From a virus (lineage: Duplodnaviria > Heunggongvirae > Uroviricota > Caudoviricetes): a stretch of 26,467 nt of DNA. The stretch lies in the IMG/VR virus record IMGVR_UViG_2654588181_000005, positions 1-26,467 of that record, one strand, 5' to 3'. Both the position numbers and the translations under genes were made by a program. Below, in pieces: positions 1,985 to 14,827 of this stretch (position 1 is the first letter of the stretch; each line of letters begins with the position of its first letter). Under the pieces are notes generated by a model that was not told where the DNA came from, did no database searches, and worked only from the letters and a program-made list of their open reading frames with translations.

Positions 1985-2818
1985 TTATTCTTCTGGATTA
2001 TCGATTACACTGTATTCCCCGGCTATAACCGATATGTCGTCTGGATTAATTGTTTCCACCTCTTTTCCATCCATCGATACTGCACGCTGGATTTCAATAG
2101 ATACCGGCAGATACTTGAACAGTTTTCGTATCACTGTCTTTTTGGCCATGTCTTCAAAGTGTTCATCCCAGATGGACGACGCCCCTTTTGACGCTGCGTT
2201 TTTTGCCGCCTTGCTGTGTGTGTCGCGAACTTTTTCTACCTGTTTGCGGGTCATGACTTCAAACTGCACTCCTCCGTCTTTCAGTTTTGCAACAGCATAG
2301 ACATGGGTTATAGGGGCATCTTCGTTTTCACCGGGACGATGAACCAGTTTTTCATCAAGGCCAAGTTCATAGCTGAATTCATCACATTCACGGACAACAC
2401 GAGCTGACAGACTGATGATTTGACCTGATCGACGGGCAAGGTCGATCATGCCGCGATAACCGATGATCAGCTGTACGTTCTTCTTACCGTTTTTTGCTTT
2501 TCCGTTGCCGAACGGTAGCAGATATGCATGACCGAGGGCGCTACCTGGCTCAAGTCCGAGCTGTGAACACTGTACGATGGCACCGATAAAACTCGTCGAG
2601 TCACAGTTTCTTAGTTCCGGTACTTTACGGATTTCTGTTGTAGCAATGCGGATCATGCGTTCCGCTGTCATGTGACGTGGCAGAGCTGCTGCCAGTTGCG
2701 CTTTCATTGCCGGGCTGTTAATCACGCACAGCACATCCTTATCGTTAACTGCTGCTGGTGCACGGTTTCCCTGAGTTTTTTGCAGATCGGCTTTTGCGAT
2801 AGGTGGTTGCTTAGTCAT
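1985..2818 (-). CDS. recT: RecT single-strand annealing protein
   Basis: Translation from [42 protein letters not shown] matches RecT as recalled; start overlaps the recE stop. Confidence 0.9.
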
Positions 2819-5462
2819 TTGCATACTCCTTAGCCCAGCGGGGCAGTGATAACGTCTTAATAGCTGGCCATTCATCGGTATTTAGGCAGTCAGCCAGGGT
2901 CCGCAGATTGCGGTGATATTCCTGCTGGCCTGCCAGTTTTGCTTCTTCGCCCATCATGAAAATCTCAACCGGATAACGTCCGCATTCAACAGTTGTGCTG
3001 GCAACCAGAAAAACGAAAGTTGGCTGCACACCAAACTGTGCTTCATAACCGTCACTGTAGAATGCATCCTGAACGTGATAGCGGTAGTCGTAATAAGCCG
3101 TTTTGAATCGTTGAATATCCGCTGTGGTTTTCACGTCCATGATCCAGTGAAATTCAGGAATAATTTTGTCCGGACGGCACCGACACAAAATTCCTGTTTC
3201 CGGATCTTCCCAGTAAATTGATGATTCAGCGTGTCCGGCGCTTTCAACAAGCCATTGCCCCAGCGGCAAAGCCATAACGCTTTGATACATGAGTTCAATT
3301 TTCCGGCCTTCTTCCGCAGTGATAACCGTTTTTCCTGTGCTTGCGCATTCCATCAGAAACGCTTTCTCTTCTTCTTTTCCGGCGTTTGTACGGCGGTTAA
3401 ATTCAGGTGCTACGATAAAGCGGTTACTGAATTCTTCCGGTTCAAGTACCCGGCAGTGGAAAGCGGTTCCTAAATCGAGCGTTTTTGTCTTTGTAGTGTC
3501 CACGGGGGCATTTTTACGCCACAAATACAGTGCCGGAGTATCAGCAATGTCATCGAGCTGAGACTTACTGACACCGGGACCCGCGTGGTAATTCTCATTC
3601 GAAATTCCGTAATAAATACCTGGCTCTATGTCTTCTACGATTACGGGATCTGCGACTTCGCCAGTTTCATCACTGCAATCGCGATGCGGATCGCTGCCAG
3701 CATTCTCATTGTGCGGATGTTCAGCGCCTTCCATTTCCTCCGGATCTTTTTCCTTAGCTTCAACCTGATTCTCTTCACCGAATGTTTCCTGGTATGTTGC
3801 GTCGCCCATCACCGCACCACAGTCAGGGCAGTTATCCCCGCCAGTCTGACCGCAGGCATTGCAGACTATTTCCGGTTCCTGTTGCACTACTGGCTCAGGT
3901 TGTTTCGCATCCGGGCTGATTTTTTCCGTTTCTGGCTGGTTCTGGTACACAGAATCGCGAGTCTGGATCCCCTTAACCCATTTCGGATCGTTCGGGTCGC
4001 TAATTCCGTCAACAAATTCACCACGTGATGCAGCAAGCAATTTATCGGCATCGACAGGATTTTTTGATGGAATGTTTTTCCGGGCTTCCTGGAGTTCTGC
4101 CCGCAGTTCCTGATATTTCGCATCAACAGAATTTACCTGTGACTGAGCATCCAGCGGCTGCGTGTTCTGATGATGTTCAGTTGCATTCGGTTCCACTGTT
4201 TCAGCCGTTGCCTGTTCATCTGCCATTGCGCCAGATGGTTGTGGTTTTTCTTCATCGTCCTGTTTTCCTTCTTCTGTTACTCGCTGCGGCATCGGGGCCG
4301 AGGAGCGACCGCAGGCAATATCCACGATTTCCGGATCAGGGTTGGCATGATCGGTTTCAGTCAGTACTTTGTTCAGATATTCAGTGACGTGTGCGGGGAT
4401 GACCTCGATCCCAATTGGTGCTTCTTTTACGGACGCAACCACGATGGCGCGGGAATAATCCAGCCCACCAGGCATGGTGATGAATTTGTCGCGGAAAACA
4501 GAAAAGGGTGGTTTATTTTCAGCGATAATTTCCTCGACACGTTTAGCGTGTGCCGGATGAAGGTTATAAATGTCCACGTCCATTGAACGAGCCAGTACGC
4601 CAGTGGCTACGTCGCGCGCCAGTGACGTCAGATCGTGAACGAAACCTTCGCCGCGATCGGTGAGGTTCCCGCCGCCAGCATTAGCGCCGGAAGCCGTGCG
4701 CGTGATGCGTGAAACACGATTTCCTTTTCGCCATTCTTTTGTCAGAAGACCGCGATCAATGTGTTCGGTATCCAGCCAGGCTGAAATGAAATTCTTAAAT
4801 TCATAGGGCTGATGTTTTTTCGTGATAGAGAACACTGCCTTAATTGCATCAGTCAGGCGGAGCAGGGCGGCATTATCCAGAGTTGTCGGTTCTGCCATGC
4901 TGCGTATGGCCAACAGCAGATTCTGGACATAGCTGTTTTCCTGATCCATCTCAAGAGCAGTAATGTGTTTGCGTTGTTCACGGGTGGCATGATGCAGGTA
5001 TTTCCGATCCCCGGCTGCATACGTAAAAATGTGCAGAAGACGCTGTGTGAACCGCAAAGTGGCTACAGAGACTTCGCAATCCTGGCAATCCTCGTGGGCG
5101 TCTGCCTGCGCGTTTTCTTCCTGGCCTCCCGCCAGTTCTTTGGTTTCTTGAGCATTATCCTGGTGGTGAACGTCGTCTGGCGCTGCTCCCGGTTTTAGTT
5201 CCCAGGTCATTGAGTCTTTGCTGAGTTGATAGCGTTCACTCCAGGTAAAATCGATCTCACCTTCAGGGGGAAGGTCATTAACGACAGGAAAATTCGTGGC
5301 AACAGGTTTAAAATAGCTGCTCAGTTTTTTACCTGACTTAACGAGCAGGTAGTCCAGAGTGGCACAGGTCGATTCAAAATCGTCGCTTGCCCACAGGACG
5401 ACGTCAGGTTCACCGGATGATTTTTTCGCTTTCCGTAACAGGAAGAGTGGTTTTGTGCTCAT
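2811..5462 (-). CDS. recE: RecE exonuclease VIII
   Basis: 883-aa ORF starting [47 protein letters not shown], typical of Rac RecE; adjacent to recT. Confidence 0.9.
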
Positions 5463-5563
5463 TGTTTTTTAACCTCAACTCAGATTAAAATTCGTTTTGT
5501 TCAGTGAATGATCTTGCCGGATACACACTGTTCATAGCCTGCGTATGGCGCAGGCTATTTCTT

Positions 5564-13683: not shown

Positions 13684-14205
13684 TGAAAATTCCTCAAGTT
13701 GGAGAGTTCTGGAACATTAAGGCGAGGTGGCCGTAATGCACCATCTGTAATCTTTTGATACTGACGTAATCGGGCCTGATGTGCAACGCCTTGCAAGTAT
13801 GTAACTCATTGAAAACGATCATTTTTATCTATTGACATCAAATGGCAAACTGTCATTGTGCGGCTATGGCAAGTGGCAAATGCTTATAAATCATATGGAT
13901 ATAAATAGTACAGAAAGAGTTGTTTTCTCTAGGATATGAGTATACGCCCAATGCTGATTGGTTGAATTTTGTTCTTGTTTTAAAGGGTAAGAGTTTAAAG
14001 TGTTGGCAGTGATGTATTGGATAGTTAGAATTGCTGTGGGTGCTTGAGGCTATCTGCCTCGGGCATGATCACCAAAGGTAGATAGAGAAAAGCCCCAGTT
14101 AACATTACGCGTCCTGCAAGACGTTTAACATTAATCTGAGGCCATATCTATGCGACACATAGAGATTAGCCTCTTACGGACCGAAAGGTCAAGGAGAAGC
14201 AGGCT

Positions 14206-14361
14206 ATGAAGCAGCAAAAGGCGATGTTAATCGCCCTGATCGTCATCTGTTTAACCGTCATAGTGACGGCACTGGTAACGAGGAAAGACCTCTGTGAGGT
14301 ACGAATCCGAACCGGGCAGACGGAGGTCGCTGTCTTCACAGCTTACGAACCTGAGGAGTAA
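14206..14361 (+). CDS. hokD: Hok/Gef-family type I toxin (HokD/RelF-like)
   Basis: 51-aa product MKQQKAMLIALIVICLTVIVTALVTRKDLCEVRIRTGQTEVAVFTAYEPEE; a short upstream ORF (14150-14209) ends overlapping the hok ATG, mok-like. Confidence 0.85.
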   Translation: MKQQKAMLIALIVICLTVIVTALVTRKDLCEVRIRTGQTEVAVFTAYEPEE

Positions 14362-14368
14362 GAGACCG

Positions 14369-14390
14369 GGCGAGGGAGAAATCCCTCGCC
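14369..14390 (+). promoter_or_regulatory. Stable stem-loop in the hok 3' region
   Basis: GGCGAGGGA-GAAA-TCCCTCGCC, a 9-bp stem with GNRA loop, 8 nt after the hok stop; no U-tract follows, so not a classic terminator. Confidence 0.5.
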
Positions 14391-14827
14391 ACCTCTGATG
14401 TATTATGCATCCTCAACGCACCCACACTTAACCAGCTTTGGCGGGTTTATTTTATCTGTAAATATTTTTATAAAAATAATGCCCACGCACAGCATAAAAC
14501 AAAAAGTATTACAGATAAAAAAGGAGCGTAATGTGCAGATTTGTTGTTTTCCATATTTACTCACCTTAATATGATTAATCCTGATAGGGTTGTTATTTCA
14601 GTGGTTTTCAAATGAGATATTATGGTGATCTGGTAGATTTGCATAACATTAAAATTTAATTTGTTTAACCGCTTTTAATAATAAGCGTTGTTTTTATCCC
14701 AGCAATCTGTTGTTTGGTTTTTATTCCATCAATGTGGGGGCTTTACACTGGAGCCAGTTTATTTATACTTCATTCGTCAGCCTGAACAACTGGCATCTGC
14801 TGCACTGCGCCATCGAGAGATTGAGAA

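Follow-up and report, generated by a model that had tools for sequence, protein, structure and literature searches.

The DNA surrounding the locus described here is a Rac-like lambdoid prophage of E. coli with intR, xisR, ralR, recT, recE, kilR, racR and ydaS/T, and it further carries replication, nin-like, lysis and terminase genes. The window, i.e. the whole stretch of DNA that was analysed, comprises 26,467 nt. A gene for a Hok-type toxin is flanked by a KilA-N gene and a DUF1367 gene in the nin-like, early-right part of the prophage. An earlier description derived from the letters of the DNA (the sequence-only reading) had proposed a hok-family type I toxin locus embedded in a prophage, and the gene set around the locus agrees with this placement. 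The features of the locus are as follows (window positions; + and - denote the strand).

14003-14031, +: putative promoter of the hok mRNA (-35 TTGGCA at 14003-14008, 17-nt spacer, -10 TAGAAT at 14026-14031)
14038-14453, +: predicted full-length hok mRNA of ~415 nt with the 5' end GGGUGCUUGAGG, placed by the start of the Rfam sok model and the limits of homology
14038-14049, +: tac (translational activator element), forming the 5' terminus of the mRNA; its predicted partner is fbi in the full-length mRNA and ucb after truncation
14090-14098, +: ucb, the anti-Shine-Dalgarno element of mok, AAGCCCCAG, predicted to pair with the mok Shine-Dalgarno sequence in the full-length and with tac in the truncated mRNA
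14156->14088, -: candidate Sok-like antisense antitoxin RNA of 69 nt, collinear with the sokW misc_RNA of AP000422 and NC_000924
14137-14140, +: mok Shine-Dalgarno sequence GAGG, 9 nt 5' of the ATG at 14150, sequestered by ucb in the predicted full-length fold
14150 (ATG) to 14207-14209 (TGA), +: mok leader ORF of 19 codons, with its stop TGA and the hok ATG overlapping in the sequence ATGA
14163-14192, -: putative Sok promoter (-35 TTGACC at 14192-14187, 18 nt, -10 TAATCT at 14168-14163)
14206-14361, +: hok toxin gene, 51 aa, with the Shine-Dalgarno sequence GGAG at 14193-14196 and a Pfam HOK_GEF match
14369-14390, +: 9-bp GAAA-loop hairpin, GGCGAGGGA-GAAA-TCCCTCGCC, predicted to protect the 3' end of the processed hok mRNA
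14411-14423, +: fbi (fold-back inhibitory element), CCTCAACGCACCC, the complement of tac, from which only C14417 bulges out
14430-14453, +: putative intrinsic terminator for the hok mRNA, in which AACCAGC-TTTG-GCGGGTT, a hairpin in the minimum free energy (MFE) fold, precedes a T-rich run

The ORF at 14206-14361 is translated into MKQQKAMLIALIVICLTVIVTALVTRKDLCEVRIRTGQTEVAVFTAYEPEE (51 aa). In a profile search, this protein matches Pfam PF01848 (HOK_GEF) over profile positions 1-42/42 with E=1.2e-23 and 82.9 bits at a cut-off of 22 bits, confirming the Hok/Gef-family toxin that had been recognized by eye. Members of this family are small peptides of ~50 aa whose transmembrane helix is N-terminal. 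It is 100% identical to HokD of E. coli K-12, 92% identical to HokW and 43% identical to Hok of plasmid R1. Alignment with these three proteins leaves C15, T25-R26-K27, L29-C30-E31, R33, R35, G37, E40-V41-A42, F44 and Y47-E48 invariant; the family core shared with R1 Hok consists of two Cys, the TRK motif and LCE.R.R.G..EVA.F. The RefSeq annotation of the coding sequence is hokD (WP_000813254.1), without mok and without sok. Owing to its identity to K-12 HokD and its similarity to HokW, the protein would be expected to be toxic via membrane damage. K-12 HokD (RelF) is reportedly toxic when over-expressed. [quoted passage not shown]

Upstream of hok, the mok leader ORF encodes MRHIEISLLRTERSRRSRL and is shorter than the 20-aa minimum of the program-made ORF list. 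As previously noted from the letters, it ends on the hok start, which it overlaps as a leader ORF in the manner of hok loci. Its Shine-Dalgarno motif GAGG is the same as the one that is essential in R1 (PMC9841398). The position of the mok start codon is kept in 26 out of 27 homologues. It precedes the hok ATG by 56, 57 or 58 nt, so that the mok frame varies among loci. Most relatives have a mok of 68-70 codons, compared to 19 in the window. The short 19-codon form recurs in loci of E. coli, E. ruysiae, E. whittamii and Erwinia, beside in-frame and +1-frame forms. In the homologue set, it is the position of mok that matters and not its peptide or reading frame, which supports the already accepted view that mok acts purely by translational coupling. 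Translation of mok and hok would be coupled at the present copy as well.

The putative hok promoter has 10/12 matches in a sigma-70 consensus scan. Its -10 box is almost invariant in the 27 homologues, and the -35 box lies outside the conserved cassette in many loci. Homology to other loci begins at 14026 or 14038 and ends at 14423-14452. The predicted full-length mRNA folds with an MFE of -162.6 kcal/mol (z = -7.6), and its leader (14038-14208) matches the Rfam family RF01794 (sok) with 101 bits over model positions 1-157/157, where the gathering score is 59 bits. Two controls, hokW-sokW of Sp5 (113.5 bits) and an R1-type hok/sok locus (87.2 bits), were also found on the hok-sense strand, whereas a search of a relBE-hokD-type locus (L009) gave no sok match. 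That the match on the + strand contradicts an antisense RNA was considered and rejected: RF01794 is built in hok sense and ends in the hok AUG, and the strand is a property of the model because R1 and Sp5 also match on the hok strand. The terminator stem has one A.G mismatch, whereas relatives have a perfect ACCCGC-TTCG-GCGGGT stem and a T run.

Neither this terminator nor the Sok promoter was called by the generic terminator and sigma-70 consensus scans, respectively; both were located through homology and folding instead. The silence of such generic scans is no evidence of absence. The -10 box of the putative Sok promoter, TAATCT, agrees with the consensus at 3/6 positions and aligns column for column with the sokW -10 box TAACCT, which was inactivated experimentally by Takada et al. 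with primers YO-421/422 (PMC8621323). The -35 box and the GTAAGAGGC spacer are conserved in the 27 homologues. On the + strand, the promoter includes dcb at about 14170-14173. In the alignment, the annotated sokW misc_RNA of VT2-Sakai and 933W corresponds to 14156->14088 of the window. The predicted 69-nt RNA begins with a tail that is complementary to the region of the mok start, continues with a long terminator hairpin and ends in UUUU; it folds at -25.8 kcal/mol (z = -4.6). The sequence-only reading had demanded an antisense Sok-like RNA near the 5' end for a functional locus; this predicted promoter and RNA supply a candidate. Transcription, instability and RNase III-dependent neutralization of the toxin have been shown for sokW (PMC8621323), and by analogy Sok would be transcribed here, be unstable and neutralize Hok via RNase III cleavage. 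A YUNR U-turn motif was not convincingly identified by eye in the Sok target loop.

Folding of the mRNA reproduces, at the level of prediction, the published structural switch that accompanies truncation of the full-length form. The pairing of tac (14038-14049) with fbi (14411-14423) is present in both the MFE and the centroid fold, and the full-length MFE fold also contains the pairing of ucb with the mok Shine-Dalgarno sequence. Truncated mRNAs fold into tac/ucb together with a pairing of the mok Shine-Dalgarno sequence and dcb, or into a metastable tac hairpin. The outcome depends on the chosen 3' end: tac/ucb is obtained with ends at 14396, 14400 and 14405, the metastable hairpin with 14392. 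The same tac/fbi, ucb and dcb switch has been described for R1 (PMC9841398), and folding of the R1 and Sp5 controls recovered these pairings including tac/fbi. Among 77 tested pairs, 87.4% are paired in the 27 homologues, compared to 37-46% in slid controls; double changes occur at 21 pairs, a number reached by 0/500 shuffles. The tac/fbi helix is 95.1% paired. Its covariation support is one compensatory pair (GC->AU, in 4 sequences) because tac and fbi are almost invariant. The 9-bp hairpin at 14369-14390 (helices 9 and 10), which had been recognized earlier as a stem-loop with a GNRA loop following hok, is 94-98% paired with compensatory changes and is predicted to end the processed (truncated) hok mRNA. 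The role of the corresponding 3' stem in R1 has been described (PMC9841398).

The Hok, Rfam and fold signals are each far beyond chance. Sequence elements, homology, and predicted alternative folds together with their conservation are all observed at the locus, and positions 14003-14453 very probably form an intact hok/sok-family type I toxin-antitoxin cassette of the prophage type (hokW-sokW or full-length hokD). The sequence-only reading had put forward alignment to hok/sok and hokD loci as a check; homology and folding located both the Sok promoter and the fold-back elements of the mRNA. The interval of 14100-14400 originally assigned to the locus lies inside the cassette, but it cuts off the promoter and tac (14003-14049) on one side and fbi and the terminator (14411-14453) on the other.

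A mechanism can be proposed for the cassette on the basis of the R1 and hokW paradigms. A constitutive promoter would give rise to a stable mRNA of ~415 nt, closed into a loop by pairing of tac at the 5' end with fbi at the 3' end. In the closed mRNA, the mok Shine-Dalgarno sequence would be buried by ucb, so that neither ribosomes nor Sok could act. Slow trimming of the 3' end to the GAAA hairpin would remove fbi, tac would then pair with ucb, and the mok Shine-Dalgarno sequence and the Sok target would be exposed. The unstable 69-nt Sok from the opposite strand would pair over the mok start, and the duplex would be cut by RNase III. Once Sok is gone, be it by loss of the element or by prophage induction as shown for sokW, the 19-codon mok would be translated; ribosomes would terminate on the hok AUG (AUGA) and re-initiate, producing the 51-aa Hok and damage to the inner membrane. 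Transcription, processing, toxicity and biological role of the cassette would follow its characterized relatives.

The closest experimentally characterized relative is hokW-sokW (with mokW) of the Stx2 prophage Sp5/VT2-Sakai and phage 933W, which shares ~90% DNA identity across 14026-14435. [quoted passage not shown] Both copies are found in lambdoid prophages and have in common tac, ucb, the mok start, the layout of the Sok promoter, the extent of Sok, the 3' hairpin and fbi. They differ in mok: mokW is in frame with hokW and comprises 70 codons, yielding an N-terminally extended Hok, whereas the mok of the window lies in another frame and stops after 19 codons on the hok ATG because of a 2-nt deletion and a 1-nt insertion relative to mokW. 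Further differences concern the Sok promoter (TTGACC-18-TAATCT in the window, TTGCCT-17-TAACCT for sokW), the length of Sok (69 nt and 71 nt, respectively), the C-terminal residues of the toxin (TAYEPEE and VDYESEK) and the location, as the Sp5 copy is near the end of the record beside a ygiW/ydeI-like gene and the window copy between the KilA-N and DUF1367 genes. Rac-type phages of the same phage type (MN652886 'Escherichia phage Rac' and KU052037 Rac-SA53) are 91.5-92.3% identical at the DNA level and already have mok and hok annotated. Their mok has 68 codons in the +1 frame, and their flanking genes differ, with rem downstream. The plasmid R1 hok/sok locus (parB) has the same tac/fbi, ucb/mok Shine-Dalgarno and tac/ucb pairings, Sok over the mok start and the 3' hairpin, and it matches the same Rfam family. 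However, its Hok is only 43% identical, its mok has 70 codons in the +1 frame, and it is plasmid-borne with demonstrated post-segregational killing. A blastn search of plasmids at a distant setting found no DNA similarity to R1-type hok/sok; the R1-type locus was obtained by tblastn with the R1 Hok peptide.

The name hokD and the identical 51-aa protein suggest another reading, in which the gene is an orphan toxin of the hokD (relF) type with no antisense RNA to control it, comparable to the hokD in the relBE-hokD operon of the Qin prophage in K-12. The RefSeq annotation with hokD as the only coding sequence would fit this reading as well. Alignment to K-12 hokD refutes it: the two loci are nearly identical from the hok Shine-Dalgarno sequence through fbi and the terminator (about 14193-14450), but only there. 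In K-12, relBE is located immediately 5' of hokD and relE takes the place of the leader, so that the promoter, tac, ucb, the mok start and the Sok gene have been lost; the window has all of these, with the whole leader and the Sok promoter, and the relBE-type locus L009 is the one that gave no sok match. An orphan toxin is accordingly regarded as extremely improbable, and the window copy is a complete cassette of the ancestral (hokW-sokW) type rather than the decapitated K-12 form that the name implies.

Structural intactness is no proof of activity, since chromosomal hok loci tested earlier (hokA, hokB and hokC) gave no post-segregational killing (summarized in preprint 10.1101/2025.08.07.668861). 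The cassette could likewise be complete in structure yet functionally silent, a hitch-hiking relic like the K-12 chromosomal hok loci, and the terminator mismatch and the 19-codon Mok (68-70 codons in most relatives) point in this direction. Nevertheless, every element known as a target of inactivating events is intact in the window, in contrast to loci such as L018, which lacks fbi, L008, in which promoter and tac are disrupted, and K-12 hokD without its whole leader. A near-identical mok/Sok core in 777 records (at least 99% identity) and the identity of the toxin to K-12 HokD, with its reported toxicity, also argue against silence. So does the activity of the 90%-identical hokW-sokW (PMC8621323). 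A silent relic is therefore considered unlikely. For an active cassette, help with lysis or its timing after induction, or stabilization of the prophage, is the most likely role. Abortive-infection defence of the lysogen as the main role, in place of prophage maintenance or lysis help, is conceivable but doubtful. R1 hok/sok reportedly excludes phage T4, and further toxin modules (ralR/RalA, kilR, ydaS/T) are present in the prophage studied here. Genes of the hok type are ~4-fold enriched in prophages, and a defence role has been proposed (preprint 10.1101/2025.08.07.668861). The same preprint, however, reports that hok is not enriched beside defence systems, and the only experimental study of the closest relative points to lysis and phage release after induction (PMC8621323); the sequence itself does not distinguish between defence, maintenance and lysis. 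Only tentatively can it be suggested that the 19-codon Mok ending on the hok AUG (AUGA) is a distinct stop-start re-initiation mode of control instead of a neutral frame variant, and that the cassette in Rac-like prophages is a lysis-timing or anti-phage device instead of an addiction module.

The AT-rich upstream spacer of ~500 bp described in the sequence-only reading (13684-14205, 522 bp, 41% GC) is intergenic only in its part at 13684-14002 (319 bp, 38% GC compared to 46% in the window); the 168 bp next to hok (14038-14205, 48% GC) belong to the leader of the hok mRNA. The three TGGCAA(A/G) repeats reported there were found at 13843, 13867 and 13874, and the accompanying TTGACA is located at 13832-13837, not at 13831-13836. 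It is very unlikely that these motifs are a regulatory part of the hok locus, such as operators or an extra promoter. The three copies lie on the same strand within 38 bp, a clustering that was as tight in 0/400 Markov simulations, and each reads TTGCCA on the minus strand, with 5/6 matches to the -35 consensus. However, the cassette homology elsewhere begins at 14026 or 14038, ~150 bp downstream of the repeats, which travel with the KilA-N gene module. The whole window has 14 TGGCAA(A/G) occurrences with 12.2 expected by chance, as well as 9 comparable 6-mer triples. With the look-elsewhere effect taken into account, the cluster exceeds chance only weakly. Conservation of the spacer is uninformative because relatives are 97% identical across it. 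In the consensus scan, the TTGACA at 13832 has no acceptable -10 box downstream, and the only promoter-like match that uses a repeat runs leftward toward kilA-N (13848->13821). A sigma-54 -24/-12 reading of the repeats was rejected by eye for unfit spacing. The repeats are real but, judged by the cassette boundaries and the weak statistics, they are not part of the cassette, and no role can be demonstrated for them.

The hok/sok-type cassette is among the commonest elements in E. coli: a match to part of the surrounding 1-kb region is present in 4741 of 5426 complete genomes, and the mok/Sok core is matched in the 777 records mentioned above. Public genomes already have the toxin gene annotated, and the locus, although complete, is an ordinary representative of a known, very common element. 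Beyond annotation, the matter is small; to the RefSeq hokD coding sequence can now be added mok, Sok, both promoters and tac/ucb/dcb/fbi. The same prophage has further toxin modules, namely ralR/RalA, kilR and ydaS/T. With ralR/RalA and the cassette, two type I toxin-antitoxin systems are found in one Rac-like prophage.

The hok/sok-family locus at 14003-14453 is real, and the sequence-only reading interpreted it correctly. The element was known before and is extremely widespread: RefSeq lists the toxin gene, records of related phages name mok, hok and sok, and the closest relative, hokW-sokW of the prophage Sp5, has been characterised experimentally. The assignment of the 51-aa ORF (peptide MKQQKAMLIALIVICLTVIVTALVTRKDLCEVRIRTGQTEVAVFTAYEPEE) to the Hok/Gef family is confirmed by a match to Pfam HOK_GEF from end to end of the profile (E = 1.2e-23; score 82.9 bits, cut-off 22). 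Its sequence identity is 100% with K-12 HokD, 92% with HokW and 43% with Hok of plasmid R1. Its Tyr47 codon (context UACGAA, window 14344-14349) is invariant in 27 of 27 aligned homologues; TadA A-to-I editing that changes the Tyr47 position to Cys has been reported for the hokC, hokD and hokE mRNAs (preprint 10.1101/2025.08.07.668861). The elements of the cassette are as follows.

14003 (+), TTGGCA, -35 of the hok promoter, 17 nt before the -10
14026-14031 (+), TAGAAT, -10 of the hok promoter
14038-14049 (+), tac, the mRNA 5' end element
14090-14098 (+), ucb, the mok anti-SD
14137-14140 (+), GAGG, mok SD
14150-14209 (+), mok, leader ORF of 19 codons
14206-14361 (+), hok
14369-14390 (+), stem-loop with GAAA loop
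14411-14423 (+), fbi, the 3' fold-back inhibitory element
14430-14453 (+), hok terminator
14192-14187 (-), TTGACC, -35 of the Sok promoter, 18 nt before the -10
14168-14163 (-), TAATCT, -10 of the Sok promoter, followed by a G at 14156
14156-14088 (-), putative Sok RNA, 69 nt

The hok promoter matches the consensus at 10 of 12 positions, and its location places the mRNA start at ~14038, where the Rfam model RF01794 ("sok") and the homology between loci also begin. This model is covered entirely by 14038-14208 (101 bits, gathering score 59). On the hok strand of the controls, it scored 113.5 bits for the validated Sp5 hokW-sokW and 87.2 bits for R1-type hok/sok, and gave no match on a relBE-hokD-type locus. 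The strand of the match reflects the model's own hok-sense orientation: from mRNA +1 to the hok AUG it follows the toxin leader, and Sok is encoded on the strand opposite to its matches, an orientation that can mislead automated annotation.

For the full-length mRNA (14038-14452), both the minimum-energy and the centroid fold pair tac (14038-14048) with fbi (14412-14423) and the mok SD with ucb (14092-14098), at -162.6 kcal/mol vs -118.5 +/- 5.8 in shuffles (z = -7.6). If the mRNA is shortened to end at 14396-14405, a little beyond the GAAA hairpin, the predicted partner of tac (14038-14045) is ucb (14090-14096), with U14041 bulged; in the folds ending at 14396 and at 14405, dcb (14170-14173) is the alternative partner of the mok SD. 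In the predicted fold ending at 14392, tac lies in a local "metastable" hairpin with 14057-14066. These predicted folds are those of the published R1 scheme, in which tac/fbi and SD/ucb pair in the full-length RNA, tac/ucb and SD/dcb in the truncated RNA, and tac forms a metastable hairpin in the nascent RNA (PMC9841398). The 5'-3' clamp was also recovered in the R1-type and Sp5 controls by the same folding procedure. The mRNA fold-back elements that the sequence-only reading had proposed to look for are present in these predicted folds, and the 9-bp GNRA stem-loop it described after hok is present as GGCGAGGGA-GAAA-TCCCTCGCC.

A scan of species-representative genomes yielded 53 loci. The alignment with the window used 26 of them, all distinct and full-length, with identities of 68-92% in the aligned blastn segments. 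The 77 regulatory pairs of the window's fold are standard pairs in 87.4% of cells, compared to 37-46% with partners slid by 1-3 columns. Changes on both sides occur at 21 pairs vs 10.9 +/- 1.9 in shuffles, a number reached by 0 of 500 shuffles. The tac/fbi helix is 95% paired across homologues and so conserved that it offers a single compensatory pair (14049-14411, GC to AU, in four Kluyvera-group and related loci). Degenerate copies occur in the same set, one lacking fbi (L018) and one with scrambled promoter and tac (L008), and in K-12 hokD everything upstream of ~14193 is replaced by relE; the window copy is free of these lesions. Homology to most other loci begins at 14026 (-10) or 14038 (+1), and the hok -35 varies by context (TTGGCA in the window, TTTGCG in Sp5). 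The recombination boundary of the mobile cassette lies between -35 and -10 of the hok promoter (14002-14038).

A candidate for the Sok-like antisense gene, which a functional locus would need, was located by alignment with hokW-sokW as a promoter and a 69-nt RNA. In a three-way alignment, its -10 shares columns with the sokW TAACCT. According to primers YO-421/YO-422 compared with the Sp5 sequence, the "pro-less" sokW mutant swaps exactly this octamer (sense TAGGTTAG to CCGGCTCG), and HokW toxicity is released in this mutant (Takada et al., PMC8621323). The 69-nt span corresponds to the annotated sokW (533 to 463 in retrieved locus L002). In its predicted fold, a long hairpin (14143-14092) and UUUU follow a 13-nt 5' tail that can pair with the complementary mok start (-25.8 kcal/mol, z = -4.6). 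The -35 (TTGACC or TTGCC), the spacer segment GTAAGAGGC and a TAAYCT-like -10 are retained across 27 homologues.

The short ORF seen to end on the hok start is mok, two bases of whose TGA are shared with the hok ATG. In 26 of 27 loci its start codon keeps the same position. Counted start to start, the hok ATG follows at 56, 57 or 58 nt, which brings all three frames relative to hok into use (L002, L004, L017, L019 and L054 are among the loci showing this variation).

In frame with hok: 69-70 codons, an extended Hok; example mokW
+1 frame: 55-69 codons; examples R1 and Rac 442/2
+2 frame: 19 codons, ending AUGA; the window, E. ruysiae, E. whittamii and one Erwinia locus

With the start fixed and every frame used, what is conserved is translation as far as hok and not the Mok peptide. 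At an identity of at least 99%, 777 E. coli records contain the window's 91-nt mok/Sok core, and this form is therefore common. When mok of R1 is given a premature stop ahead of hok, Hok is no longer made (PMC9841398 Table 1). A ribosome on the window's mok would still reach the hok AUG, which makes coupling of Hok translation to mok by termination and re-initiation plausible.

The 1-kb region that surrounds the locus is found along its whole length (100%) in the E. coli strain A17 chromosome (NZ_CP028757.1), at 99.9% identity; window coordinates equal those of this comparison's locus L001 minus 301. The A17 annotation places a Rac-like lambdoid prophage around the locus, which bears out the proposed prophage location. 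The genes ahead of hokD are intR, xisR, ralR, recT, recE (pseudogene), kilR, racR, ydaS/ydaT, replication genes and a KilA-N gene (A17 annotation; Pfam). The KilA-N gene is followed by hokD, DUF1367, DUF1364 (Pfam YbcO), DUF1133, holins and endolysin, and terminase and head genes. DNA searches found the 14026-14452 block in 110 records of phages, most of them Escherichia or Stx-converting phages, and in 589 records of plasmids, P1-like ones among them; of 5426 complete E. coli genomes, 4741 have a match to some part of the 1-kb region. The 14026-14452 block carries the annotations mokW, hokW and "SokW antisense RNA" in VT2-Sakai (Sp5) and 933W, and mok and hok in Rac-type phages. Near-identical E. 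coli-type hok (93-100%) also occurs on 275-2995 bp contigs assigned to unrelated genera, namely Acinetobacter idrijaensis (L020), Xanthomonas pisi (L025) and a Candidatus Scatousia MAG (L058), and in the phage record PP818812 (Actinobacillus phage vB_Apl-pPE4); contamination or a wrong assignment is more likely here than a true host range.

The mechanism proposed for the window cassette is carried over by analogy from R1 and hokW-sokW. In the latter, sokW RNA is lost after mitomycin C in a RecA-dependent manner, HokW builds up in the inner membrane ~1 h ahead of endolysin, and in its absence growth arrest comes later and phage release falls by half when hokW-sokW has been deleted (PMC8621323). 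By comparison with this closest relative, the window cassette most likely acts as a lysis helper or in another prophage-linked role; prophage stabilisation or abortive-infection defence may be its role instead. A recent survey found hok ~4-fold enriched in prophages (preprint 10.1101/2025.08.07.668861).

Upstream of the cassette, the three TGGCAA(A/G) copies were found at 13843, 13867 and 13874. The TTGACA near them is present at 13832-13837, one base off the position first given, and the spacer, described as ~500 bp and AT-rich, comprises 319 bp of intergenic sequence at 38% GC and 168 nt of hok leader at 48% GC. The repeats precede the hok -35 by ~125-160 bp and are not part of the block shared between contexts, which begins at 14026 or 14038; they are always found with the KilA-N gene. 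Statistical support for the cluster is mixed. The motif is not enriched window-wide (14 observed vs 12.2 expected); a tight triple of this particular motif arose in 0 of 400 simulations, and a triple of any 6-mer in the 319-bp spacer in 1.25% of simulations, with nine such triples in the real window. Relatives are 97% identical in the spacer, so conservation is uninformative on the repeats. On the minus strand each repeat reads TTGCCA, and TTGCCA (13848-13843) with AAAAAT (13826-13821) forms a 9/12 promoter-like site directed at kilA-N, which is a lead only. The spacer also holds an 11-nt direct repeat (CAAATGGCAAA / CAAGTGGCAAA, at 13839 and 13870) and a tandem 15-mer (CAAATGCTTATAAAT / CATATGGATATAAAT, 13877-13906).

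Downstream, the terminator stem contains an A.G mismatch (ACCAGC-TTTG-GCGGGT), whereas relatives are perfect (ACCCGC-TTCG-GCGGGT); some read-through toward DUF1367 could result. The interval up to DUF1367 (14453-14827) is 375 bp of non-coding sequence at 34% GC with two terminator-like sites (14670-14687, 14739-14755) and promoter-like sites; a small hypothetical ORF takes its place in some relatives (L060 and L061).

Elsewhere in the prophage, the matching RefSeq record gives recE (2393-5464, -) as a pseudogene interrupted by a stop, which makes the prophage less than fully intact. Together, ralR (RefSeq) and the RalA sRNA (1071-1265, - / 1557-1735, +) form a second type I toxin-antitoxin system, RalA being a full-length Rfam match (218 bits, gathering score 170); kilR and ydaS/ydaT are present too. 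The gene after the large terminase is usually portal. Here, the 478-aa product encoded directly after it (23566-25002, +) carries the RefSeq name "anti-CBASS protein Acb1 family protein", which may deserve checking.
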